From Candidatus Saccharimonadota bacterium (GTDB taxonomy: Bacteria > Patescibacteriota > Gracilibacteria > UBA4473): 32,000 nt of DNA. This document shows positions 10,546 through 32,000 of this stretch, in pieces. The notes beneath the pieces are model-generated. The model saw only the letters and a list, made by a program, of their open reading frames with translations, did no database searches and was not told the DNA's origin. A program made the translations under genes and the position numbers. The stretch lies in assembly GCA_963677105.1 (NCBI GenBank), contig OY781871.1, positions 480,001-512,000 of the forward strand. Direction: 5' to 3'. How positions within the stretch are numbered: position 1 is the stretch's first letter; the number at the start of each line of letters is the position of its first letter.

Positions 10546-11823
10546 ATGAGCTCTCCACAACAAATACCTTTTATTGAAAAACAAGACGCAGAAATTGCAG
10601 CAGCAATTCGCGGTGAAGAAAAACGAGAAAGAGAAGGACTCGAACTTATTCCCTCAGAAAACTATGTATCAAAAGCTGTCCTCGAAGCAGACGGTTCTGT
10701 TTTCACAAATAAATATTCTGAAGGATATCCCGGACGTCGATATTACGGTGGACAAGAATACACAGACATCGTTGAGCGAATCGCAATAGAACGCGCTTGT
10801 AAGCTTTTTAACTGTAAATATGCAAACGTACAACCGCTCTCTGGAGCACCAGCAAACGTAGCGATGTATTTTGCTCTCTGTAAACCTGGCGATACAATTC
10901 TTGGAATGGATCTCGGGCACGGAGGACATTTGACTCACGGACATCCGGTAACACATTTAGCGAAAATTTTTAACTTCGTGCGATACGGGATGAAAGATCC
11001 TGAAACAGGGGAAATTGATTATGAAGCACTCAGAGAAACGGCTCTTCGGGAAAAACCAAAAATGATTCTCGCTGGATTTTCTGCTTACTCACGAGAACTT
11101 GAGTATGAAAAGTTTGTAGAAATTGCAAAAGAAGTTGGTGCGATTACTGTTGCTGACATGGCACATATTGCAGGACTTATAGCCGGGAAAGCGGTGAAGA
11201 ATCCATTTGATTATGGATTTGATGTTATCACGACCACAACTCATAAAACGCTTCGTGGACCACGTGGAGGAATGATTCTGACTCGGGAAAATGAAGATTA
11301 CGCAAAAGCAATTAATAAATCTGTCTTCCCTGGATTACAGGGGGGACCTCACATGCATTTAATTGCTGGAAAGGCTGTTGCATTTGGTGAAGCTTTAAAG
11401 CCAGAGTTTCAAGAATATGCACAACAGGTATTGAAAAACGCAAAAGCAATGGAAAAAGTATTCCTCGACGGAGGCGTACGACTTCTTGGAGGAGGAACCT
11501 CTAATCATCTACTCTTGGCTGATGTGTTTGGGTCTCTTGGTGTAACTGGAAAAGATGCACAAATGGCTCTTGATGAGGTTGGAATAACGCTCAATATGAA
11601 TTCCATTGCAGATGATCCACGAAAGCCGCTAGATCCTTCTGGAATTCGATTTGGAACACCAGCAGCAACTACACGAGGATTTAAGGAAGAAGACTGTGCT
11701 CAAGTAGCAGAACTTATGCTTGCTGTATTGAACAACATTGAAGACGAGAAAATAAAGAAAAATGTACGCGAAGAAATTAAAGAGCTCTGTGTTTCTCATC
11801 CAATTCCTGAAAGTTTCGTCTAG
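10546..11823 (+). CDS. glyA: Serine hydroxymethyltransferase
   Basis: 425 aa. LELIPSENY, YPGRRYYGG, SGAPANVA, and PLP-lysine motif TTTHKTLRGPRGG. Confidence 0.97.
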   Translation: MSSPQQIPFIEKQDAEIAAAIRGEEKREREGLELIPSENYVSKAVLEADGSVFTNKYSEGYPGRRYYGGQEYTDIVERIAIERACKLFNCKYANVQPLSGAPANVAMYFALCKPGDTILGMDLGHGGHLTHGHPVTHLAKIFNFVRYGMKDPETGEIDYEALRETALREKPKMILAGFSAYSRELEYEKFVEIAKEVGAITVADMAHIAGLIAGKAVKNPFDYGFDVITTTTHKTLRGPRGGMILTRENEDYAKAINKSVFPGLQGGPHMHLIAGKAVAFGEALKPEFQEYAQQVLKNAKAMEKVFLDGGVRLLGGGTSNHLLLADVFGSLGVTGKDAQMALDEVGITLNMNSIADDPRKPLDPSGIRFGTPAATTRGFKEEDCAQVAELMLAVLNNIEDEKIKKNVREEIKELCVSHPIPESFV

Positions 11824-11905: not shown

Positions 11906-14900
11906 TTAGTTACATAATGGTTGTGGCGTAAACATTCCACAAGTTCCGGCAGAAGGAGGCGTAAAGGATCCTGCTGGTAGATAGATTAAGTGTTTATCGG
12001 TCTGTAGGTTCTGCATTCCCGTGAGAGCATTGACTCCTTTCATTACATTCGCATTCCCGTCAACAATTGCAGAAACTTTGTTATTATCATTAATTGTACA
12101 TTCTTCAATTATTACTGGTTTTTCTGTTTCAGAACAATATTTATCAGCAACTATCCCTCCTAAACTACTTGAACAACTCACTTTGCGGGCCCTATATAAC
12201 ACTGGTGAAGCCAATGAAGCACTCGTCAAGGCTGTTTCAACTGTACTTAATTCAATTCCTGTCGAAGACATAAATCCTCCTCCCGATACTCCTACGTCTC
12301 GACTTGCAACGGAAGTGGCATGACTAATATCATCAATCAGTGCTACTGCTTCTATCGCAGCAATTTGCTCAAGTCTTTCGTCCACCGTCATTGGAGTTCC
12401 TTCTACTATATCTATCAATGAAGCCCTTGAAAGAGAACTCGATAATCCTGCTGCAGTTAAAACTTGTTCCTTTTTCTGTGTCAAATTTGTAACTGCTGCT
12501 GCTGCTGACTGTTGAACTGATTTCTCTGCTGCTATTACGTTCGCTACTCGTTGATTATTTCCACAATTTCCCCATTCTCCTACTTCCCAGTCATATGTAA
12601 CCTTTGTTAGTGTACAGTCTTCTACGCTCGCTGGACGAGCACTGACCGAACTACTAAGTTTGTCTGTACAGAATGAATCTTCTACCACTTTCCCTGTATT
12701 TATGTGTACACAGTCCACGTCTCGTGTTCGAATAGGGATTTTGTTTTTGGCTACTGAGGAATAGAGTGTTGCACCACTTCTTGCTGAAGAAGATGTCACT
12801 AGATACGCCTCCTTTATTTGTGCTGAAATCTCTTCTATATCTTCCTTCACTTTTAGTGCCGCTTTTTCTAATCCTGTTCTTCTCTTTGATAACACTGGAG
12901 TAGTTGTACTCACTGCTATATTATTTTTTGCTGTCTCAAGTTTCGTGTATTTTTTCTCGAGTTTTTGCTTCACTATTTCTATAGAAGAATCTGCATCAGG
13001 TCCACATGGACTCCATTTTCCCAATCTCCATTCATAGTCATCCTCAAGTTCACACTCCATCATAGACACTGGTCTTGATGAACTAAATGTTGTGAGCTCA
13101 TTACTGCTTTCACAGAAAGAATCTTCTACGATTTTTTTATCTGAACGCTGACAACTTACGTCTCTGTATTTATATGGCAATCCACCATCATTCACTTCTT
13201 GGTTCACTATTGATACAGCTTCACTAAAAGTAAGTGTAGATTTTGTTGCATCTGTTATCGTCGTCGTATCAGGACTTCCACTAATCGCTATTTTCTCATA
13301 TTTTCTCGCTTTTTTTGCATTAATTGCCTTTGTATATTTTCGAAATTTAGCATTTACTCGAGCTTGAACACGAGCTGTCTCATCGCTTGAAGCAGAAATC
13401 GAAATCACTGCATCTGACGGACTTGACCAAGATGGCAATGATGAAAAGTTCTCGTTTGCCTGTGCCACGAACTTCGCCCGTGCAGATTCTAATTTTGCAA
13501 TCTCTTCATCTGCTGTTTCTTTTTCTTTCTCTCTTCTTGAAACATATAATTTCACGCTTTCTGGTTTTCCTGCACAGTCGCTCCAATCACCAGTAATCCA
13601 TGAATATGTATATTTCACTTCATTGTCATACAATTTACATGTTTGACTCGATTTCGGTCGCTCTGTTCCCGCACAATACACCTCTGATTGAAGTGATCCA
13701 AATTCACTAAGACAAAGTACGCTTCTAAACTGAATTCCTACTGGAACTGAAACAGCTTCCTCCACTGAAATATCACTATCCACTAAAGCGTTTATTGCAA
13801 GCACCACATCTTCTTTCACTTTATTTTTCAATGACACTGCTTTCGTCAAGCTTTCACTGCTGCTAGACAACGTACTTCCAGCTCCTGAAGTATAATATGT
13901 CACCATTTGTTCTGCTGCACGTAACTCTTTTTCTAAGTCCTCTACTTTTTCATTAAGATCAACTTTTTCTGCTCCACACGGTCCCCATCGTCCTACGCTC
14001 CATGTTCCTGGGATGCTTACGAGTGGATCTTCTGCTCCGAAAATGTTTCCTGTTTTCATTGATTGCACTCCCGCTCCGAGCTCGTTCACAGCGTAAACAA
14101 AGATATCATATTTCTTTCCCGCTTCTGGCTTTGGCGTACCTGTTACGTCCCATGTATATGCTCCTTCTCCTTCTGCTACGTCAAAACATGTTGTCCCCAA
14201 AGATTCTCCTTGCACACACACTTTGTAGGTACTAATTGTACCGTATCCTTTTTGAGCTTCTGTACTCAAGTCTGTCCAAGTAACTGTAAATCCATTTGCT
14301 TGAGACTCAATCGCTAAATCTGCTGGTGCCAATGGAATAGTCACAAAATTCAAGTTCAAAAGATTTCCTTCTTTATACAAATCTCCTGTGAAGTTAATAT
14401 TTCCTCTTATGTCCAATGCTTCTGTTGGAACGGTTGTCGGAAGAAGGTTTATTCCTACCTTTGATGTTCCCGCTAATGAGTCAGCTAGCCGAACTGTCGG
14501 CGCTGTAACCGAAATTTTTGTGTTCGCCCCTGGTAGCCCTGCCAATGTTGCAATATTAATATCTCCCGTTGAATCATTCTGAATTAATATATCTTTATCT
14601 AGTCCTCCAGCAATTTTCATGCTTAAGTCTTCGCTTAATGAAGAAATGTCTAACTGCTCACTCTGAGAACTCAATATTATCTTTCCTGAATTCCTGCTTA
14701 ACACCTCTGCTCCATCATCTCCCATTCGAATTGTATTGTTCCCAACATGAAGATCCTCTACCCAAAGATTTCCAAACCATTTATCTGCGGCCCCAATATT
14801 TCGAGTAGAAATAACTCCCGTCGCTCCTGTCATATTTGGCAATATGTCTGAAGTAACATCTGTAAGATCTGCTCCACTTCCACCTGATATATCCGTTCCA

Positions 14901-15268
14901 CAGGTAAATACTCCCGAAGCATCAACTGCCTGAAGTTGTTCTCCTGATGCACATGTCAGAGCCGTAACCCCTGAACCACCTGCCGGCCAAGCTGTTATAC
15001 AGTCTGTATTTATACAAAATTCTGGCGCAGTTAATTTTGTAACAGATGTATCATTTAAATCTAATCCTGTAATTTTCCCGCTTCCATCAATATCTACTCC
15101 TGTAAATACTTCTGTTACCTCGTTTATCGCAGACGTTATATCGTTAAACTCGTACGCAGAAACGGGGTCACTTGCTGATTTTTCTGGAAAATTGAGGGAA
15201 CTAATCTGAGCACTCGCGTTGCTCATTATAAGTACCCCGACGAGGCCGAGAAGAAGCGTTTTTTTCAT
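11906..15268 (-). CDS. Giant secreted surface protein: tail-fibre-like N-terminal region, FN3-like domain, four split TSP1-like Trp/Cys modules
   Basis: The ORF track starts at TTG 15295. ATG 15268 gives the signal peptide MKKTLLLGLVGVLIMSNASAQ. The N-terminal region carries tail-fibre/beta-helix-like motifs (FCINTDCITAWP, IGAADKWFGNLWVEDLHVGNNTI, ALDIRGNINFTGDLY). An FN3-like domain lies at about aa 320-415 (ORF-track numbering). Four repeated W..G.W..CG ... R.V.C modules span about aa 431-1067. Confidence 0.85.
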   Translation of the reverse strand: MKKTLLLGLVGVLIMSNASAQISSLNFPEKSASDPVSAYEFNDITSAINEVTEVFTGVDIDGSGKITGLDLNDTSVTKLTAPEFCINTDCITAWPAGGSGVTALTCASGEQLQAVDASGVFTCGTDISGGSGADLTDVTSDILPNMTGATGVISTRNIGAADKWFGNLWVEDLHVGNNTIRMGDDGAEVLSRNSGKIILSSQSEQLDISSLSEDLSMKIAGGLDKDILIQNDSTGDINIATLAGLPGANTKISVTAPTVRLADSLAGTSKVGINLLPTTVPTEALDIRGNINFTGDLYKEGNLLNLNFVTIPLAPADLAIESQANGFTVTWTDLSTEAQKGYGTISTYKVCVQGESLGTTCFDVAEGEGAYTWDVTGTPKPEAGKKYDIFVYAVNELGAGVQSMKTGNIFGAEDPLVSIPGTWSVGRWGPCGAEKVDLNEKVEDLEKELRAAEQMVTYYTSGAGSTLSSSSESLTKAVSLKNKVKEDVVLAINALVDSDISVEEAVSVPVGIQFRSVLCLSEFGSLQSEVYCAGTERPKSSQTCKLYDNEVKYTYSWITGDWSDCAGKPESVKLYVSRREKEKETADEEIAKLESARAKFVAQANENFSSLPSWSSPSDAVISISASSDETARVQARVNAKFRKYTKAINAKKARKYEKIAISGSPDTTTITDATKSTLTFSEAVSIVNQEVNDGGLPYKYRDVSCQRSDKKIVEDSFCESSNELTTFSSSRPVSMMECELEDDYEWRLGKWSPCGPDADSSIEIVKQKLEKKYTKLETAKNNIAVSTTTPVLSKRRTGLEKAALKVKEDIEEISAQIKEAYLVTSSSARSGATLYSSVAKNKIPIRTRDVDCVHINTGKVVEDSFCTDKLSSSVSARPASVEDCTLTKVTYDWEVGEWGNCGNNQRVANVIAAEKSVQQSAAAAVTNLTQKKEQVLTAAGLSSSLSRASLIDIVEGTPMTVDERLEQIAAIEAVALIDDISHATSVASRDVGVSGGGFMSSTGIELSTVETALTSASLASPVLYRARKVSCSSSLGGIVADKYCSETEKPVIIEECTINDNNKVSAIVDGNANVMKGVNALTGMQNLQTDKHLIYLPAGSFTPPSAGTCGMFTPQPLCN
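12095..14005 (-). repeat. Four divergent protein-level repeats (split thrombospondin-type-1-like modules) inside the giant gene
   Basis: The module boundaries, in nt, are approximately 13631-14005, 13046-13609, 12608-13036 and 12095-12598. See the finding for the aligned motifs. Confidence 0.6.
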
Positions 15269-15550
15269 GTGTGTTTGTGTGAAAAATTGTATCAATATCT
15301 ATTTTTTCACGCATTGAGAAAAAAGCCAAACTTTTTTTGGACGTAAAATTTTCTCTCTCCCCATCAAAATGGGAACTCAGTCCTATTTATATTTGACTTT
15401 TTTGTGCTTTTAGTCTATTCTACAAGTGTTCCTTGGCTACTTTTACAAAAGATCGTCAAGGATGATCTTTGATATATCAGAATTTAGAAAAAATAAGCTT
15501 TTATCTTTGGTGGCTATAAGCCACTTTTCACACCATTATATCGCTGTTTT

Positions 15551-15760: not shown

Positions 15761-18700
15761 ATGTTTTCTACAAAAAAAGGGATTGTGGTCATCCTTATAA
15801 TGACCATCGCTGTTTTGGCTTTCGGCCAGAACATGGAATACGAAAATCATGGAACAATGACTGTTGGCGGAGGATCATATCTTCGTCATAATTGGGTACA
15901 ATTACCCAATGGTGACAACTACGTTCGCTGCACAACCAATGGCGTGTCAACAAATGTTGAGTTATATGCCGGATGGACATTAACGTTTAATGGCGTTACA
16001 AATCCATGTATGGCGGAAGACGATGGCACAATTTATTGCGCTGTTAGTCAATATGACGCAACCACAATTGGCGGAGTCACATATCCTGATCCTCCAAACA
16101 ATGAATCACGAGTTATTCTCGTGAAAATTAGTTCAAGCGGATCTGTCTTAGATTCATGGATCACTTCTGACCATGGATTTGAGCTGAAGAATATCGCAAC
16201 GAATGGCTCCGAGATAGCACTTGTTGGACACGCTGACCCATCATTAGAACACCTCTCCTCCCCAATCGGCGGAGGCGTTGTTCTCATCCATGATGGAAAC
16301 AACTGGGATCCCACGAAGGGTTTCTATATTGAAACCCCTGCTAATGGATTTCGTCCGGTTGTCACCGATGTTCAATTTCTCTCAAATGGAAATTTGGCCT
16401 TAAGTGGGGAATGGACAGGCGGAACACTGTCTTTCGGCGGACTTTCTCGTTCTCCTATCGGAGGAGAGGATATGTTTCGTGGAGAAATTAGCACCGCTGG
16501 TGTTGGTATTTCCGTTGTTAACTCTGGTGGTCTTAGTGGTGATTTCGATAATATCTCTATCACCAATGCAAATGGTGATTATATGATCACTGGGCTGTAT
16601 TGTAGCTCTACATCACTAACTACGTTCTATAACGCAGACGAATCGGTTGGAGGAACTATTGATGTTCATCCTGTTGGCAACTCACATGATCAAATGTATT
16701 TTGCATTCTATGACGCTTCTGGCGTATTGCAGAATGTAGAGTATGTATACAACTCCAACGAAGATCTACGTAATGTAGACGTCGCTTGTAGCGACGGATA
16801 CTTTTACGCCATGATTAGCAATGAAAATGGGGGAACTGTAGTAACTCCAACGGAAAGTCACTCTCAGCTAGCTCCTATAATGCTTAAGTTTGATTCTGTG
16901 GGAACTCCCATATGGTCAAAGCAGTATGAGGGAACCTCTGCTCAATACGGAGAAGAAATTCTCGTGAGCGGAGATATCGTGACCATTTGTGGTCTTGAGT
17001 ACGGAACATCCGATCTCGATTTCGATGTCAACAACGTAGTCAATGTGTCCAATACTAGCTATTGGGCTCGTTACTTCGACGGCGTCGTAGTTGGACCAAC
17101 CGCAGATTTCGTTGGAACTCCAACCACAATCGTGGAAGGAGAAAGTGTTTCCTTTACGGATTTATCCGGAACTGGAACAAATCCAATCACTTCTCGCTAC
17201 TGGACATTTGGAGACGATGGAACTTCTAGTTCTACTAATCCAACCAATACTTATGATGATCCCGGAATATACACAGTTTCTTTAACTGTTTCCGACGGCG
17301 ACCTATCAGACACTGAAACGAAAACTGCGTATATCACTGTGATTGCGCAAACTTTGTCATTAACTCCAACATCAGAAGATGTTACTGCTGCGGCTGGTTC
17401 TACCAGCTTTACAGTTTCATCCAACGGTGGATGGAACGCAGAGGAAGCCTGTGGCTGGGCTACAATCGCCCCCGCCTCCGGAAACGGAAATGGAAGCATT
17501 GCGGTCAACTATCAGGAAAATACAACAACGGTTAGCCGAAGTTGTGTTGTAACTGTAACAGCTGACAACGGTCTTGAGGAAGTGTTTACACTGACTCAAG
17601 CTGGAGCAACTCCTGTGTTGGTTTTTGATCCTACAACAACGAATGTTTCAACTGTTGCTGGGAACGCTGTTTCTGTCTTGAGTACTAACGAGGCTTCTGC
17701 TTCATTAGTTATCTCAGGATCAGGTGCTGCTGTAAATCCAACAACCGTTGTAACTGGTGACACAAATGTAACGGTTTCATATCCAGCGAATCTGGACATG
17801 GCAACTCGATCGTTTGTTGTAACCGCCACATCAAGTCCTCACGGACTTGTTGAAACGTTTACCGTTGATCAAACTGGTGTTGATGCGTTTATCGTATTGA
17901 CCCCAGATAACGCGAACGTTCCAGCTTCTGCTGGTTCTGTAAACGTTACGATTGATTGCCCGGGCGACCTTGCTTGGACAATTGATGGATTGGCTGATTG
18001 GATAACCGTTGACGAGTTAACCGGAACAGGACCTCAAGATATCTTGATTTCCTACGAAGAGAATGAAGAAGAAACTCCACGTTCAGACGACTTCACTGTC
18101 GCTGGATCCGGGGAAACTGCAATGTTTTCTCTGAGTCAAGTAGCAGCAAACGCTCCTTTGAGCGGAACTGCAACTGCGTCTCCAGATGAAATATCTGTTG
18201 GTGCGGAAATTCAGCTGTCAGCCCAGGGAACTGGCGGAACTGGGAATTATTCTTATTCCTGGACCTCTGTTCCTGTTGGTTTTACATCAACAGAACAGAG
18301 CCCGACAGCCACTCCTGTAATTCATACAACGTACTCTTGCGACATTTTTGATGGCGAAGATGCGTTTGTAGCAGAAGTTGACGTAATTGTTCATCCACTT
18401 CCTGTGGTTGATTTTTACGCCGACGACGTAACTCCAACTGTTGGTCAGGTAGTGCAGTTCACTGCTGACATTACTTTCCCTTCTGGAGCACTTGGTGTTT
18501 CCACTTACGAATGGGACTTCGATGATCCCACAGGTGAAAATGGCGGATTCTCCAATGAGGAAAATCCAGGCTACGCATTTGCCGAAGATGGGAGCCACGA
18601 CGTGAAGTTGACCATCTGGTTAACGGACGGGACAGTTACTTGGGAACAGAAGATTGATTACATCACTATCACCGTTGGTGTTGATGATGAACATGTGACT

Positions 18701-18967
18701 CCGGTCACAACTTCACTCTCGAACTATCCCAATCCGTTCAACCCAACTACTACAATTCGTCTTCAGGCGAATGCAAACGTGGAATGGAAATCCCTTGGCG
18801 TTTATAACATCAAGGGACAGTTGGTTAAATCTATAGATGTGGACCGTTTACGCGGAACACAAAACATAGAGATAAAAATGGACGAGAATGCTTCTGGGGT
18901 ATATTTCATGCGTGCTACTACGTATGATGGAAAGAATATGCTTCACAAAATTTCTCTTTTGAAATGA
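15761..18967 (+). CDS. Secreted multidomain protein: beta-propeller-like N-terminal region, PKD domains, Ig/BACON-like repeats, T9SS type-A C-terminal sorting domain
   Basis: 1068 aa. Signal peptide MFSTKKGIVVILIMTIAVLAFGQN. Two PKD-like domains (VSFTDLSGTGTNPITSRYWTFGDDGTSSSTNPTNTYDDPGIYTVSLTVSD and VQFTADI...YEWDFDDP...GSHDVKLTIW). Three repeats of about 90 aa ending in ..FTLTQAG, ..FTVDQTG and ..FSLSQVA. C-terminal NYPNPFNPTTTIRL...SGVYFMRATTYDGKNMLHKISLLK. Strong SD AAAGGAGGG 5 nt before the ATG. Confidence 0.9.
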   Translation: MFSTKKGIVVILIMTIAVLAFGQNMEYENHGTMTVGGGSYLRHNWVQLPNGDNYVRCTTNGVSTNVELYAGWTLTFNGVTNPCMAEDDGTIYCAVSQYDATTIGGVTYPDPPNNESRVILVKISSSGSVLDSWITSDHGFELKNIATNGSEIALVGHADPSLEHLSSPIGGGVVLIHDGNNWDPTKGFYIETPANGFRPVVTDVQFLSNGNLALSGEWTGGTLSFGGLSRSPIGGEDMFRGEISTAGVGISVVNSGGLSGDFDNISITNANGDYMITGLYCSSTSLTTFYNADESVGGTIDVHPVGNSHDQMYFAFYDASGVLQNVEYVYNSNEDLRNVDVACSDGYFYAMISNENGGTVVTPTESHSQLAPIMLKFDSVGTPIWSKQYEGTSAQYGEEILVSGDIVTICGLEYGTSDLDFDVNNVVNVSNTSYWARYFDGVVVGPTADFVGTPTTIVEGESVSFTDLSGTGTNPITSRYWTFGDDGTSSSTNPTNTYDDPGIYTVSLTVSDGDLSDTETKTAYITVIAQTLSLTPTSEDVTAAAGSTSFTVSSNGGWNAEEACGWATIAPASGNGNGSIAVNYQENTTTVSRSCVVTVTADNGLEEVFTLTQAGATPVLVFDPTTTNVSTVAGNAVSVLSTNEASASLVISGSGAAVNPTTVVTGDTNVTVSYPANLDMATRSFVVTATSSPHGLVETFTVDQTGVDAFIVLTPDNANVPASAGSVNVTIDCPGDLAWTIDGLADWITVDELTGTGPQDILISYEENEEETPRSDDFTVAGSGETAMFSLSQVAANAPLSGTATASPDEISVGAEIQLSAQGTGGTGNYSYSWTSVPVGFTSTEQSPTATPVIHTTYSCDIFDGEDAFVAEVDVIVHPLPVVDFYADDVTPTVGQVVQFTADITFPSGALGVSTYEWDFDDPTGENGGFSNEENPGYAFAEDGSHDVKLTIWLTDGTVTWEQKIDYITITVGVDDEHVTPVTTSLSNYPNPFNPTTTIRLQANANVEWKSLGVYNIKGQLVKSIDVDRLRGTQNIEIKMDENASGVYFMRATTYDGKNMLHKISLLK

Positions 18968-28844: not shown

Positions 28845-28872
28845 AATCCCTCGTTTTACCGAGGGATTTTTT
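28845..28872. terminator. Rho-independent terminator between convergent recA and the dCMP-deaminase-like gene
   Basis: AATCCCTCG (28845-28853), loop TTTTAC, CGAGGGATT (28860-28868), then a T-run. It is better oriented for recA. Confidence 0.8.
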
Positions 28873-29341
28873 ATTTACTTTTCCCAAACAATACGTCCGC
28901 CCCTTCTACAAGAAAAACTTTCTCTATTCCTGCGTCAATCATTTTCTCCCAACAGCTTTCACAACACCACCAGTGTCCCCATAAATACAATTCTGCTCCT
29001 TTGGGATTAGCGCCTCTTCTAAGAACATCTCGAAGGGCCGTTTGTTCCGCATGAAATTTTGGAGAACATCCTGGACAAGACCAATACATTTTCCCGGATG
29101 GGACTAGGAAAAGGTTGCGTAATCCTTTTCTTACACACCCTAAATGTTTATGAAACCATGAAACATTCGCGCCCTTCCCTATTATTTTCCCTTCTTTTAC
29201 CACAACGGCACCGGTCGAATGTTTTACGTCTGTCGAATATTTCTTCGCAACTTCCTCGGCAAGACGCATGAATTCGTTTTCTCTGGGAACATAAAAAACT
29301 TCCCATCCGATAGGAATATATGGCAGTGTTTCCTTTTTCAT
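28871..29341 (-). CDS. Cytidine/deoxycytidylate deaminase family protein (dCMP-deaminase-like)
   Basis: 156 aa. Zinc motifs FHAEQTAL (HAE) and WWCCESC (the CxxC equivalent of PCxxC), plus an extra CPGC in an insert before HAE, as in ComEB/T4-type dCMP deaminases. TAATG overlap with the upstream Dcd-like gene. Confidence 0.75.
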   Translation of the reverse strand: MKKETLPYIPIGWEVFYVPRENEFMRLAEEVAKKYSTDVKHSTGAVVVKEGKIIGKGANVSWFHKHLGCVRKGLRNLFLVPSGKMYWSCPGCSPKFHAEQTALRDVLRRGANPKGAELYLWGHWWCCESCWEKMIDAGIEKVFLVEGADVLFGKSK

Positions 29342-29988
29342 TATTTCAGCTTTTTTAATACATCAAGATTTCCGGTACGTATTAATTCTAATTCTTCTTC
29401 CGCATCACACTTACTTGTAAGTTCTGCTGAGGTCGCTCCCTCATACTTTGCAGCTTGCGCTCCATGACGCTGTGCTTCATCTTTTTGCACATCACTTGCA
29501 AGTCGCTGAAAAACAATTTGACAAACTCTTTCTCCCGGGTAAATACGGATGATTTGCGACGTTGTTTTATTCAAAATTGGAATCATCAAATGTCCTGAAT
29601 AATGGACGTCTACAATCCCCGTTAAATCGACTGAAAGCCCTCGACGATTTACTGAACTTCGTGGATACAAAACTCCCATAATGTCATCTGCCCGGAGAGA
29701 AACTTTTTCAAGCGTACTTGCTATAACCGATTCACCTGGAGCTAGCTCAAAGAATTGCCCTGACTCTAAATCTATTTTCTCATAATTATCTGCCGTACAA
29801 TGAGTAACGTCCACTGTTAAAACTTCTCTCCCTCTATCTGAAATTTTCCATATTTTTGGCAAATAGAATGTCGTCCCAAGTCGCAAATCAACCGCGTGTG
29901 GTTGATCTTGGTATTTATCAAGTGCTGGTTCAAAAATTAATTTTTCCTCAGCTATCAATGTTCCGATTTCGTGTCGCGTAAGAATCAT
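29341..29988 (-). CDS. dCTP deaminase / dUTPase superfamily protein (Dcd-like, non-canonical active site)
   Basis: 215 aa. Collinear with E. coli Dcd (AVDLRLG, PGESVIASTLEKVSL, PRSSVNRRGL, C-terminal AAKYEG). The catalytic-Glu segment reads VDVHYSGHLMIPILN. ATGA overlap with the upstream DHFR-like gene. Confidence 0.8.
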   Translation of the reverse strand: MILTRHEIGTLIAEEKLIFEPALDKYQDQPHAVDLRLGTTFYLPKIWKISDRGREVLTVDVTHCTADNYEKIDLESGQFFELAPGESVIASTLEKVSLRADDIMGVLYPRSSVNRRGLSVDLTGIVDVHYSGHLMIPILNKTTSQIIRIYPGERVCQIVFQRLASDVQKDEAQRHGAQAAKYEGATSAELTSKCDAEEELELIRTGNLDVLKKLK

Positions 29989-30491
29989 TTTAAAACCTTA
30001 TACCAAAGTGCCAGCGTATTTTCCCCAATTTTTTCAAATTTATCAAGCTCCAGTTCCAATTCTGTGTCATCGCTGAAAACGCCCATTCCCGAGCCAAAAA
30101 CAATCGGCGAAACTGTAACGATAACTTCGTCTATTAATTTTTCTTTTGCAAACAACGTATTAATTGTTGTTCCTCCAGCAACAATCGGATTCTCAAATCC
30201 GAGAGAATTCAGTTTGTCCAAAATTTCTGTTGGAGACAAAGAAGTGAAAATTAAATTTTCTTCTCGTTGCTCCCATTCTCCGGCACTTCGTGATAGAACA
30301 ACTGAAAGCCTTCCTGGCAAAACTCCTGGTAATGTATCAAATGTTGTTCTTCCAAAAATCATAACACCTGACTCTTTTGTTCGACTGCAAAAGAATTTTT
30401 TATCAGCGCTTTCGGTCCAATTGGGAAAATGATTCGCGTCTTTTGCGATTCTCCCATCCAGTGTTTGAGCCATTAATAAAGAAACTTTCAT
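29985..30491 (-). CDS. Dihydrofolate reductase superfamily protein (RibD C-terminal-domain type)
   Basis: The ORF-track start 30539 is trimmed to ATG 30491 (MKVSLLMAQTLDGRIA...), which has a leaderless promoter. Motifs SLDG-like TLDGRI, MIFGRTTFDTLPGVLPGRLSVVLS, IVAGGTTI and VSPIVFGSGMGVF. Confidence 0.7.
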   Translation of the reverse strand: MKVSLLMAQTLDGRIAKDANHFPNWTESADKKFFCSRTKESGVMIFGRTTFDTLPGVLPGRLSVVLSRSAGEWEQREENLIFTSLSPTEILDKLNSLGFENPIVAGGTTINTLFAKEKLIDEVIVTVSPIVFGSGMGVFSDDTELELELDKFEKIGENTLALWYKVLK

Positions 30492-30498
30492 TAGCTGC

Positions 30499-30527
30499 AG
30501 AGTAGCAGAAAATTTGATTTTCTTCAA
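30499..30527 (-). promoter_or_regulatory. Sigma70-like promoter, leaderless geometry, for the DHFR-like/Dcd-like/deaminase operon
   Basis: On the minus strand: TTGAAG (30527-30522), 17-nt spacer, TACTCT (30504-30499), then 7 nt to ATG 30491. Confidence 0.5.
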
Positions 30528-30549
30528 AAATTTTGGCACGGTATCTCTA

Positions 30550-31425
30550 ATGAAAAATGTCTCTCCGGAATTGCGGTCAAAATTATTGCACTTTCAGCAA
30601 AGTGAACGGACAGAGGCTATTGTTTATAGGAGCTTGGCAAAGCAATGTAAGAATGAAAAAAATTGTAGAATTCTCAATCAAATTGCTGATGATGAATTAC
30701 GACATGCTGAATTTTGGAGAGCGGTGACAGACGGAGAACGCATAAAAGGAAATGTCTTTCGTGCTCGCTGGTGGAGCTTTGTTGCTCGCATTTTGGGAAT
30801 CACATTCGGATTACGATTGATGGAACGAGGCGAGGGGAATGCACAAAAAGTCTATGCGAGAGTCGAAAAATATGTTCCAAATGTCAATACTGTTATTGCC
30901 GATGAAGAAGCTCATGAACAGAAACTTATTGATGTTCTCGATGAAAAAAAATTAGAGTATGTGGGTTCTATTGTTCTTGGTTTAAACGATGCTCTCGTTG
31001 AATTGACAGGAGCTCTCGCTGGATTTTCTTTCGCGATTCAAAACACAAAAACCATTGCTCTTTTGGGGGTTATTACTGGAATTGCCGCAACCCTCTCCAT
31101 GGCTGCAAGTGAATATTTATCCAATCGAGCCGACGACAGTGGAAACGCACTAACTGCTTCTCTTTATACTGGAATCGCCTATTTGATAACGGTTATTCTT
31201 TTAGTAGTTCCGTATTTTATTTTCAACAACTATCTTCACGCTCTTGGAACAATGCTCGGAATAGTTGTGTTTGTAATTGCAGCATTTACTTTCTATCTTT
31301 CGGTGGCGAAAAATGAAAAATTCTGGCACCGTTTTGGTGAGATGACTTTAATTAGTGTTGGTGTTGCCGCATTGTCTTTTGGAATTGGTGTGGCTGCACG
31401 ATTGGGATTAGGGTTGGATATTTAA
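30550..31425 (+). CDS. VIT1/CCC1-family iron/manganese transporter with N-terminal ferritin-like domain
   Basis: The ORF-track start 30514 is trimmed to ATG 30550 (MKNVSPEL...). The ferritin-like domain has two E..H motifs (DELRHAEFW, DEEAHEQKL), followed by the VIT1 membrane domain (GLNDALVELTGALAG...SMAASEYLS...). Confidence 0.85.
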   Translation: MKNVSPELRSKLLHFQQSERTEAIVYRSLAKQCKNEKNCRILNQIADDELRHAEFWRAVTDGERIKGNVFRARWWSFVARILGITFGLRLMERGEGNAQKVYARVEKYVPNVNTVIADEEAHEQKLIDVLDEKKLEYVGSIVLGLNDALVELTGALAGFSFAIQNTKTIALLGVITGIAATLSMAASEYLSNRADDSGNALTASLYTGIAYLITVILLVVPYFIFNNYLHALGTMLGIVVFVIAAFTFYLSVAKNEKFWHRFGEMTLISVGVAALSFGIGVAARLGLGLDI

Positions 31426-31658
31426 AAAATCATTCCTACAAGCGAAACCAACGCAATGATTCCCCAAACAATCTGAAGTGCTGAGGCGGCCCACGCTTTT
31501 TTCTTTACAACAGATATTCCAAGAAATAAAGCCCCAAAAAGATTAATAACTGGATATACGATTCCCTCTACTGAAATAAACCCAAATACATTTAAAAAAT
31601 ATCCCAACACGACGAGTGTTGTTCCAACCCAACCGATGATTTCGGAAATTTTATTCAT
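31422..31658 (-). CDS. Small 3-TM membrane protein, co-transcribed downstream of the ThyA-like gene
   Basis: 78 aa with three hydrophobic helices. Its start is 10 nt after the ThyA-like stop. Its stop overlaps the VIT1 stop (shared TTAA). Confidence 0.55.
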   Translation of the reverse strand: MNKISEIIGWVGTTLVVLGYFLNVFGFISVEGIVYPVINLFGALFLGISVVKKKAWAASALQIVWGIIALVSLVGMIF

Positions 31659-31668
31659 TTTTATTTAT

Positions 31669-32000
31669 TTATAAAACAATAGACATTCTTCCGAGCGACT
31701 CCTGTGGTTCGTATTTTGATTTCAGCTGCTCAAAACATTCTTGGACCAGGTCCTCTGAATCGCCGTCGCCAACCTCCGCCCGATCAAATGCGTTTTTTGG
31801 ACAATTAAATTGAATTGGCTCCGCTAAACATTTTCGGGCAATTATCTCTCGTGCCTGATCAAAATGGATGTCATAAATATGTGCATTCGAAATTGAGATT
31901 GTTAAAAATCCAACTCCCACACCTACCTTTTCCGCCAGAAAATGAGCTAATAATGCGAATCCCGCTGTGTCATGCGGATTCCCAAGCATCATGTCATTCG
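31669..32000 (-). CDS. Thymidylate synthase (ThyA) family protein, C-terminal about 110 aa only; Asp variant at the pyrimidine-selecting position
   Basis: The frame is open to the window edge (..NDMMLGNPHDTAGFALLAHFLAEK...SNAHIYDIHFDQAREII...YEPQESLGRMSIVL). It aligns without gaps to ThyA [22 protein letters not shown] / GDTHLYSNHMDQ. Confidence 0.85.
   Translation of the reverse strand, partial: NDMMLGNPHDTAGFALLAHFLAEKVGVGVGFLTISISNAHIYDIHFDQAREIIARKCLAEPIQFNCPKNAFDRAEVGDGDSEDLVQECFEQLKSKYEPQESLGRMSIVL

Follow-up and report, generated by a model that had tools for sequence, protein, structure and literature searches.

A thymidylate synthase homologue with aspartate at the pyrimidine-selecting position in a conserved chromosomal operon of Patescibacteria

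A stretch of 32,000 nucleotides from a Candidatus Saccharimonadota bacterium (GTDB lineage Patescibacteriota; Gracilibacteria; UBA4473; assembly GCA_963677105.1, contig OY781871.1, positions 480,001 to 512,000; hereafter the window) ends within a minus-strand gene related to thyA, the gene for thymidylate synthase (TS), in which the asparagine at the pyrimidine-selecting position is replaced by aspartate. The residues of its product, its membership of a clade and the architecture of the surrounding module point to a deoxycytidylate (dCMP) methyltransferase of the type found in Xanthomonas phage Xp12. The best explanation, in which our confidence is evenly divided, is that the full-length protein is a chromosomal folate-dependent dCMP C5-methyltransferase that would feed thymidylate synthesis via deamination of 5-methyl-deoxycytidine (5-methyl-dC). 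To our knowledge, methylation of deoxyuridylate (dUMP), by ThyA or ThyX, is regarded as the universal route to thymidylate in cells. The enzyme type and the idea of methylation followed by deamination are already known from phages, and what appears to be new here is their occurrence as a conserved housekeeping operon across a large bacterial radiation, in which the gene is uniformly annotated as thymidylate synthase. No mention of an aspartate in ThyA of the Candidate Phyla Radiation (CPR), or of a cellular 5-methyl-dC route, was found in the literature searched, the coverage of which is incomplete, and an earlier description may exist.

The window gene and its full-length form

Translation of positions 31669-31998 on the minus strand gives NDMMLGNPHDTAGFALLAHFLAEKVGVGVGFLTISISNAHIYDIHFDQAREIIARKCLAEPIQFNCPKNAFDRAEVGDGDSEDLVQECFEQLKSKYEPQESLGRMSIVL followed by a stop; the reading frame begins at 31998, and bases 31999-32000 are part of the preceding codon. 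The fragment matches the Pfam family PF00303 (Thymidylat_synt) with an E-value of 9.2e-13 and 48.4 bits (cut-off 24.3) over profile positions 170-235 of 266. In a phmmer search against the PDB, residues 2-69 or 2-90 of the fragment match thymidylate synthases without gaps across the substrate-binding segment, and the PHD-T of the window protein stacks on the PFN-I of the solved enzymes (segment R-S-x-D...L-G-x-P-x-N). Against the same fragment, the L. casei mutant N229D (1njc, PFD) scores 35.7 bits and the wild type 33.4. A preliminary description of this DNA, made from the sequence alone, had aligned the gene to the TS core without gaps and placed an aspartate at the equivalent of Asn177. Re-translation and the phmmer alignments agree with the former, including the strings quoted, and both a full-length multiple alignment and the gapless PDB alignments keep Asp, not Asn, at the latter.

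A full-length relative was rebuilt from two contigs reached via homologues of the fragment and was then used as a query, which yielded more than 120 full-length proteins of 276-284 residues with at least 70% identity to it. The complete gene product, whose recovery the preliminary description had proposed, is represented by the 281-residue protein P0047, to the C-terminal end of which all 109 window residues are identical; syntenic loci were also recovered (L014, L004 and L019). The first 172 codons, including that of the catalytic Cys151, lie outside the window, and of the catalytic set considered below only H212 and Y214 lie inside it; Cys151 is present in the alignment with ThyA, T4 gp42 and the Xp12 enzyme. 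A full-length homologue matches PDB thymidylate synthases with an E-value of 1.2e-40. The AlphaFold model of a family member with 77% identity (pLDDT 87.4) retains the strand-loop-helix around the motif and has bacterial ThyA as its best structural matches, with a TM-score of about 0.8. By profile match and by fold, the window gene product belongs to the thymidylate synthase superfamily.

Active-site residues and the clade of the Xp12 enzyme

The active site was compared in a five-sequence alignment, which reproduces the published T4 numbering (C148, S169, H216 and Y218; PMC5175136) and is thereby validated. Approximate reference sequences of E. coli ThyA, Dcd and Dut and of T. maritima ThyX were used in this work, that of ThyA being corroborated by the T4 numbering and the PDB alignments. 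D182 of P0047 lies over N177 of E. coli ThyA, D179 of T4 gp42 and D196 of the Xp12 enzyme. In E. coli numbering, P0047 conserves R21, E58, W80, Y94, R126, C146, R166, S167, D169, H207 and Y209, so that its catalytic set reads C151, E64, Y99, R171, H212 and Y214 (Cys146, Glu58, Tyr94, Arg166, His207 and Tyr209), and it carries the changes W83F, R127H, L143N, H147P, Q165I, C168N, F176H and N177D.

The consequences of several of these positions have been described. The N177D substitution turns TS towards dCMP (summarised in PMC8670742 and PMC13326640), and mutagenesis has been reciprocal in two distant scaffolds, with N177D/N229D in TS and D179N in the T4 dCMP hydroxymethylase (cited in PMC8670742, PMC13326640 and PMC5175136). 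Positions 177 and 147 are the best discriminators between TS homologues on cytosine-modified and unmodified viral contigs (PMC8670742). An acidic versus a hydrophobic residue at position 143 correlates with a hydroxymethyl versus a methyl product, which is a correlation only, and a bulky Leu143 is thought to exclude water; D169N marks the flavin-dependent 5-hydroxy-dCMP synthases (PMC13326640). A preference for ribose has been linked, from the MilA structure, to Ala and Lys replacing Ser167 and Arg126 (PMC5175136).

Read by these rules, P0047 departs from canonical ThyA both at Asn177 (Asp182) and at His147 and Leu143 (P152 and N148). It carries the Xp12-type combination of Asp177 with a residue other than His at 147 (D182/P152, as D196/P166 in Xp12; rule from PMC8670742), as well as a non-acidic residue at 143 with D169 kept (N148/D174, as N162/D188 in Xp12; rules from PMC13326640). 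The acidic 143 that accompanies Asp177 in T4-type enzymes is absent (N148 versus D145 in T4), as are the Ala at TS-Ser167 and Lys at TS-Arg126 of MilA and BcmA (S172 and R126 in P0047; rule from PMC5175136) and the D169N of 5-hydroxy-dCMP synthases (D174). From D177, cytosine rather than uracil is the predicted substrate base, and from D169 folate rather than flavin chemistry is predicted. A 2'-deoxy substrate, dCMP rather than CMP, is more likely given S167 and R126, and the non-acidic 143, the ThyA-like closing C-terminus and a neighbouring dihydrofolate reductase (DHFR) gene favour a methyl over a hydroxymethyl or hydroxyl product. The scores of P0047 against NCBIfam models are 169.8 for NF002497 (cut-off 327), 145 for NF002496 (325) and 142 for TIGR03284 (108.35).

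To place these residues in the wider family, 1.84 billion cluster representatives were searched with a profile, which gave 18,274 relatives, and 149 sequences were scored, comprising the top representatives, P0047 and T4 gp42. Position 177 is Asp in 128 of the 149 and Asn in the other 21. Among the 128 Asp-type sequences, N143 is present in 109, P147 in 101 and F83 in 115, position 127 is Gln, His or Arg, and D169 is retained in all 128 representatives. All 21 Asn-type sequences possess L143, H147 and R127, and W83 is present in 19 of them, whereas none possesses N143 or P147. T4 gp42 shows a third pattern of D143, T147 and V83. The aspartate that had been put forward as a cytosine-type signature is thus strengthened by the co-varying N143, P147, F83 and Q/H/R127, and by membership of the Xp12 clade described below. 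The dipeptide N-D preceding it (S-N-D versus S-C-D) does resemble gp42 rather than ThyA, as had been observed, but is not diagnostic, as position 168 varies (S, N, A, C, Q or E) inside the Asp-type clade.

P0166, one of the Asp-type representatives, is encoded on phage contigs, flanked by a MazG-like gene and a dCMP deaminase gene, and as a query against isolated phages it led to the Pamexvirus/Bosavirus group, which includes Xp12. The single TS homologue of Xp12 carries N162, P166, F87, D188 and D196. P0047 shares four of the five signature positions with it (N143, P147, F83 and D177), the fifth, position 127, being His in P0047 versus Arg in Xp12, and an insertion WDPAxDGL...KNVPCP and a motif RHFGRDQ are common to both. 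P0047 scores 184 bits against phage P0166, 160 against Xp12, 125 against E. coli ThyA and 43.5 against T4 gp42. Neighbour-joining groups the CPR sequences in a single clade (87 of 100 bootstraps), the sister group of which is the clade with Xp12, and the split of CPR plus Xp12 from all Asn-type ThyA is recovered in 76 of 100 bootstraps, a moderate support from a distance-based method only.

Elsewhere in the family, P0284 (263 residues, on contigs of about 41 kb) possesses a natural Asp177, scores 383 bits on NF002497, above the cut-off, and keeps H147, L143, W83 and R127; P0252 also possesses a natural Asp177 and keeps W83 and R127, with Pro at 147. Both are near-canonical ThyA and group with the Asn-type sequences on the tree. 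In each, N177D seems to have arisen independently, and contigs of this size suggest phages. Natural fusions with an Asp-type TS include dCMP deaminase::TS in P0156 (433 residues) and MazG/PRA-PH pyrophosphohydrolase::TS in P0220 (424 residues). Two Gracilibacteria proteins, P0098 and P0115, carry a 24-residue insertion (VKTAERRSIKLKDGSDFWIGSDAT-like) immediately after the W80/F83 folate-contact segment (alignment columns 119-142).

The Xp12 group offers measured activities for comparison. All cytosines of Xp12 DNA are 5-methylcytosine (5mC), and in an in vivo assay in E. coli the Xp12 TS homologue and five of seven other, metaviromic deaminase-linked D177 homologues made 5-methyl-dC (bioRxiv 10.1101/2024.12.05.627091). 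According to the same study, the linked enzymes of the dCMP-deaminase family often prefer 5mC nucleotides, the best-studied acting on 5-methyl-dCTP, and selectivity for 5mC is polyphyletic in the family; TS and deaminase genes lie within 3 kb of one another on 70% of modified versus 6.1% of unmodified contigs. Its authors proposed, for viruses only, that phages obtain thymidine nucleotides via deamination of 5-methyl-dC nucleotides. In the related phage AXL1, a DHFR-like protein confers trimethoprim resistance (PMC9206674).

The operon and its distribution

The preliminary description had placed the gene in an ordinary chromosomal context with recA, lexA, metG and purL and without phage genes. 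This description stands, and the rest of the window is ordinary chromosome (a pilB-like ATPase, Fur, RNase Y, glyA, purL, metG, lexA and recA), but it missed an operon, as genes for DHFR-like, Dcd-like and deaminase proteins lie 1.1-2.3 kb downstream of the thyA-like gene (Table 1).

Table 1. Coordinates of the thyA-like gene, its diagnostic codons and the associated genes in the window
Feature	Position	Strand	Description
thyA-like gene, 3' end	31669-32000	minus	109 codons and TAA stop (31669-31671); residues 173-281 of P0047
Asn173-Asp174 codons	31993-31998	minus	E. coli C168 and D169; D169 kept, the folate-type state, not D169N
Asp182 codon (GAC)	31969-31971	minus	E. coli Asn177, L. casei Asn229, T4 gp42 Asp179, Xp12 Asp196; pyrimidine-selecting position
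His212-Ile-Tyr214 codons	31873-31881	minus	E. coli H207 and Y209; bind the deoxyribose 3'-OH (role from PMC5175136)
CBU_0592-family small membrane protein	31422-31658	minus	78 residues; NCBIfam NF047864, E 2.3e-13; directly downstream of the thyA-like gene
RibD_C/DHFR-like reductase	29985-30539	minus	184 residues; PF01872 1.4e-16, PF00186 4.2e-11
Dcd-family protein	29341-29988	minus	215 residues; TIGR02274 98.9 bits, above cut-off
dCMP/cytidine-deaminase-family zinc enzyme	28871-29341	minus	156 residues; PF00383 6.7e-15; 2.3 kb from the thyA-like gene
Serine hydroxymethyltransferase (glyA)	10546-11823	plus	PF00464 7.6e-152; source of 5,10-methylene-tetrahydrofolate

Neighbourhoods were counted in 81 loci. 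In 54 of them, a homologue of the DHFR-like protein is encoded no more than 3 kb from the thyA-like gene, the distance in the window being 1.1 kb. The window protein shares 28% identity with the DHFR-like protein of Xp12 (E 1e-10), to which the AXL1 homologue is 91% identical, and it is a probable dihydrofolate reductase that would recycle the dihydrofolate (DHF) released by reductive methylation. DHFR is needed for reductive methylation only; a hydroxymethylase has no use for it. Because DHFR is consistently adjacent, the reaction of the thyA-like protein would be a DHF-producing reductive methylation.

The Dcd-like protein, homologues of which are encoded downstream, on the same strand, in 54 of the 81 loci, has Pro where the catalytic Glu would stand (E138 in E. 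coli, E129 in M. tuberculosis) when aligned to M. tuberculosis Dcd (hitlElsn versus hlmiPiln). The same Pro is present in all 46 true CPR Dcd homologues (e.g. L004 11778-12428 and L019 11773-12423). Because Pro replaces the catalytic Glu, deamination by the known mechanism would not be open to this protein. The motif GIVDVHYSGHLMIPILN in it is similar to LIDSDYQGQLMISVWN of dUTPase, and the annotation as a deaminase is probably mistaken, the likelier activity being that of a dUTP or dCTP pyrophosphatase. Dictyostelium Dcd2 is reported to nest among the CPR Dcd sequences and to complement E. coli dcd (PMC10733785).

The third gene encodes a candidate 5-methyl-dC nucleotide deaminase or an ordinary dCMP deaminase, and since 5mC selectivity is polyphyletic in the family its substrate is not decidable from sequence. 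P0297, which is 100% identical to the window deaminase, lies on the same 962,416-bp contig as P0047, which identifies this contig as the source genome, and no similarity between the window and Xp12 deaminases was detected by BLAST. Deaminase homologues lie within 10 kb of the thyA-like gene in 49 of the 81 loci; in the 49 loci with full flanks, they lie within 3 kb in 29 and within 4 kb in 33. Sixteen loci, including L019 and L020 on the complete chromosomes OZ245819.1 and OZ246423.1, possess the thyA-like, DHFR-like and Dcd-like genes without a nearby deaminase, and L019 simply lacks the deaminase that the window carries between the Dcd-like gene and recA/lexA. In some loci the deaminase is fused to a further domain, assigned by eye: a P-loop nucleotide-kinase-like domain in L043 (2552-3568), and a C-terminal PSLGxGxExxxA domain of the nucleoside 2-deoxyribosyltransferase/Rcl-like type in L057 (2638-3612), L058 (12946-13872), L053 (12027-12938) and L076 (12009-12896). 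The latter family we take to include the MilB/BcmB N-glycosidases.

Recurrent neighbours across the loci are thymidylate kinase (Tmk), Tmk-Dut fusions, serine hydroxymethyltransferase (SHMT), MazG-like genes and canonical FolA. The SHMT gene glyA, 20 kb from the thyA-like gene in the window, adjoins it in 10 related loci, and the small membrane open reading frame (ORF) is frequent directly downstream of the thyA-like gene in the gene maps of relatives. In the window, a divergently oriented VIT1 gene separates this membrane protein gene from the DHFR-like gene. Single ORFs that join an N-terminal thymidylate kinase to a C-terminal trimeric dUTPase lie a few kb from the thyA-like gene in L069 (4310-5512) and L052 (13650-14825). 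A search of the 10 kb on either side of the thyA-like gene in the 81 loci detected neither ThyX nor a second ThyA ORF, a weak negative in that it covers these flanks only and the ThyX query was approximate. Because the thymidylate operon is conserved, it most likely delivers dTMP and not an exotic base.

In a pattern scan covering a single genome for each GTDB species, 299 loci were confirmed for the family, and taxon labels were taken from the best 80. Their titles are mostly Patescibacteria (CPR), with Gracilibacteria/Peribacteria/Altimarinota at 70-100% identity and Magasanik-, Harrison-, Sacchari-, Paceibacterota, Moran-, Nomura-, Uhr- and Doudnabacteria at 54-60%; a few carry only the label 'bacterium' or Gammaproteobacteria. 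The motif RSND..LG.P[HF]D is present in all 127 homologues long enough to show it, and shorter fragments carry PHD, PSD or PFD. The CPR-type protein also occurs in records titled 'uncultured Gammaproteobacteria bacterium' (L048, L050, L051 on the 931-kb chromosome OZ246400.1, L053, L061 and L070). The two of these that were inspected show operon neighbours, a DHFR-like gene in L051 and the fused deaminase in L053. The CPR-type protein, the operon neighbours and the small chromosome suggest that the label is wrong. A tblastn search of 50,697 phage records returned no homologue with more than 36% identity to the family query, and a recent phage origin or a prophage was rejected on this basis and because the window genes are housekeeping genes only.

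Many of the first-round homologues were about 104 residues long and started with MMLG, and 8 of 17 were C-terminal halves. In L001 (5900-6010) and L002 (2820-2860), the thyA-like gene is broken before the catalytic Cys by a -1 frameshift near an A7-A8 tract encoding KKK(N), and other genes beside it are split too, DHFR in L001 and an aminotransferase in L002. The shift is likely a homopolymer assembly error, with transcriptional slippage as the alternative, whereas an alternative genetic code or programmed frameshift was rejected given the other split genes on these contigs and the more than 120 in-frame full-length homologues. Two very large ORFs elsewhere in the window are side observations: one of 1129 residues (11906-15295, minus strand) has only a weak thrombospondin-type match, its sole domain-level match and below threshold when taken alone, and one of 1068 residues (15761-18967, plus strand) has PKD, BACON and Por-secretion C-terminal sorting domains, which is unusual for Patescibacteria.

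Candidate reactions and known systems

In the proposed pathway, P0047 would convert dCMP and 5,10-methylene-tetrahydrofolate to 5-methyl-dCMP and dihydrofolate, and the RibD_C-type reductase encoded next door would regenerate tetrahydrofolate. The Dcd-like protein, without the deaminase Glu, would hydrolyse dCTP (or dUTP) to give the monophosphate, and the enzyme of the dCMP-deaminase family would convert a 5-methyl-dC nucleotide to a thymidine nucleotide. The net output would be dTMP/dTTP, with methylation preceding deamination as has been proposed for Xp12-type phages. On all likely readings the operon output is thymidylate, and the order of the steps differs.

Several observations weigh against this pathway. 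The operon context fits ordinary thymidylate synthesis from dUMP equally well, given DHFR, SHMT, Tmk, the Tmk-Dut fusions and the Dut-like motif. TIGR03284, a model of the NCBI Prokaryotic Genome Annotation Pipeline (PGAP), passes P0047 as a thymidylate synthase, its 142 bits exceeding the cut-off of 108.35. In 16 of the 49 full-flank loci, including the two complete chromosomes, no deaminase homologue lies within 10 kb, and no close deaminase homologue was among the matches listed for thyA-like-bearing contigs of 1.30 Mb, 1.33 Mb, 828 kb and 768 kb in a search by shared 5-residue words, which is limited in reach. The CPR clade is sister to, not nested in, the phage clade and shares 34% identity with Xp12, and its function could differ. 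Finally, a cellular dCMP methylase risks the entry of 5-methyl-dCTP into DNA. The preliminary description had the enzyme act on dCMP or CMP and install a methyl or hydroxymethyl group; the residue argument holds and would narrow this to dCMP and methyl, but the context equally fits a dUMP synthase.

It is accordingly possible, if on balance doubtful, that P0047 is a genuine dUMP thymidylate synthase that tolerates or protonates Asp177 thanks to P147, N143 and the hydrophobic 165, with the Dcd-like protein a dUTPase and the deaminase an ordinary one, both supplying dUMP. The conserved operon, with its DHFR-like, Dut-like/Dcd-like, dCMP deaminase, Tmk, Tmk-Dut and SHMT genes, accords with such an enzyme, as do the lack of a second TS gene within 10 kb in the 81 loci, the resemblance of the Dcd-like motif to that of dUTPase with Tmk-Dut fusions nearby, and the loci without a nearby deaminase, about one third, where a trio of TS, DHFR and dUTPase-like protein would be self-sufficient only with dUMP as substrate. 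The closest solved structures and the PGAP model are likewise ThyA, and thyA is listed in the minimal repertoire of groundwater Patescibacteria (PMC12455944). However, the reciprocal mutagenesis in two distant scaffolds makes Asp a strong determinant of cytosine, the signature is common to the 5-methyl-dCMP-making enzyme of Xp12 and five of seven other D177 enzymes likewise make 5-methyl-dC, and none of the 21 Asn-type sequences carries N143 or P147.

A dCMP methylase could also have a different outcome, in which substantial product is phosphorylated and incorporated and the bacterial DNA carries nucleotide-level 5mC as in Xp12, for instance as protection from nucleases. This is improbable, and it is equally improbable that chromosomal cytosine in Patescibacteria with the module is partly or wholly replaced by 5mC via 5-methyl-dCTP, a state described to date in phages such as Xp12 only. 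The four functions are the same as in Xp12-type phages, whose DNA is fully 5mC-substituted, P-loop (d)NMP-kinase-like genes adjoin or are fused with the deaminase in L043, L072 and L082, and a nucleotide pyrophosphatase could deplete dCTP. Against this, neither dedicated evidence for modified DNA nor, in the literature searched, a report of it was found, routine assembly of the genomes succeeds with both standard and long-read data, Tmk and the deaminase indicate dTMP as the end product, and the cell's own cytosine-dependent processes would suffer.

A dCMP (or CMP) hydroxymethylase or other C5-modifier of the T4 gp42, MilA/BcmA or RB69 type, with a role in DNA hypermodification or in making a nucleoside natural product, is very unlikely: Asp177 is common to these types, position 143 is a polar Asn rather than a bulky Leu, and some deaminases are fused to the by-eye Rcl-like domain that we presume to be related to MilB/BcmB, yet 143 is non-acidic, unlike T4 and MilA, and is also Asn in Xp12, a proven methylase, D169 is kept, unlike in 5-hydroxy-dCMP synthases, S167/R126 is the deoxy state, unlike MilA/BcmA, DHFR is consistently adjacent, similarity to gp42 is weak (24%, 43.5 bits), and neither the window nor the gene maps show glycosyltransferases or natural-product genes nearby.

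If the preferred reading of an Xp12-type dCMP methyltransferase is correct, many Patescibacteria may make thymidine nucleotides by methylation of cytosine nucleotides and subsequent deamination, and a large bacterial branch would obtain an essential DNA precursor in a different way. The reaction named in hundreds of genome annotations and metabolic reconstructions would then be wrong, and the DNA-modification module of phages would share its origin with an operon for cellular housekeeping. Such a route would bear on the avoidance of dUTP and uracil in minimal genomes and on the sensitivity of epibionts to antifolates and 5-fluoropyrimidines, and would be a pointer to 5mC-selective deaminases useful in methylome sequencing. 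Were the enzyme instead a dUMP synthase, the family would provide a natural exception to the rule that Asp177 means cytosine, which is used for predicting phage DNA modifications.

Among known systems, the dCMP methyltransferase of Xp12 and related Pamexvirus/Bosavirus phages (MT664984.1, QNN97214.1) has the same PF00303 fold and equivalents of Cys146, Asp169, His207, Tyr209, Asp177, Asn143, Pro147 and Phe83, and the Xp12/AXL1 neighbourhood likewise places a TS homologue, a dCMP deaminase, a RibD_C-type DHFR and a nucleotide pyrophosphohydrolase or HAD hydrolase side by side. The CPR protein differs in being 34% identical, in its own sister clade and in His or Gln at position 127, where Xp12 has Arg. 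Its genes lie in housekeeping chromosomal operons near recA, lexA, rpoC and ribosomal genes, and the pyrophosphatase of the operon is of the Dcd family, versus MazG or HAD in Xp12-type phages. Canonical ThyA (EC 2.1.1.45; E. coli and L. casei) provides the best PDB matches (E 1e-40, TM about 0.8) and is similar in length class, hydrophobic closing C-terminus, catalytic core and a DHFR operon; the CPR protein is unlike it in N177D, H147P, L143N, W83F, R127H and Q165I, in falling under the NF002497 equivalog cut-off and in the 76/100 tree split.

The remaining relatives share the aspartate at the specificity position. T4 gp42, a dCMP hydroxymethylase, also shares the R-S-N-D motif and a deoxy substrate, but with its 24% identity and 43.5 bits it carries Asp145 at 143, Thr at 147 and Val at 83 and is without the ThyA-type C-terminal segment. 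The CMP hydroxymethylases MilA and BcmA are likewise encoded on bacterial chromosomes, but have Ala176 and Lys133' where the CPR protein has Ser172 and Arg126, Asp at 143 in MilA, and a secondary-metabolite cluster rather than a thymidylate operon. The 5-hydroxy-dCMP synthases RB69 gp48 and DLP3 gp80 share the superfamily and N177D, and they combine D169N and L143E with flavin, whereas the CPR protein has D174 (D169) and N148 (L143).

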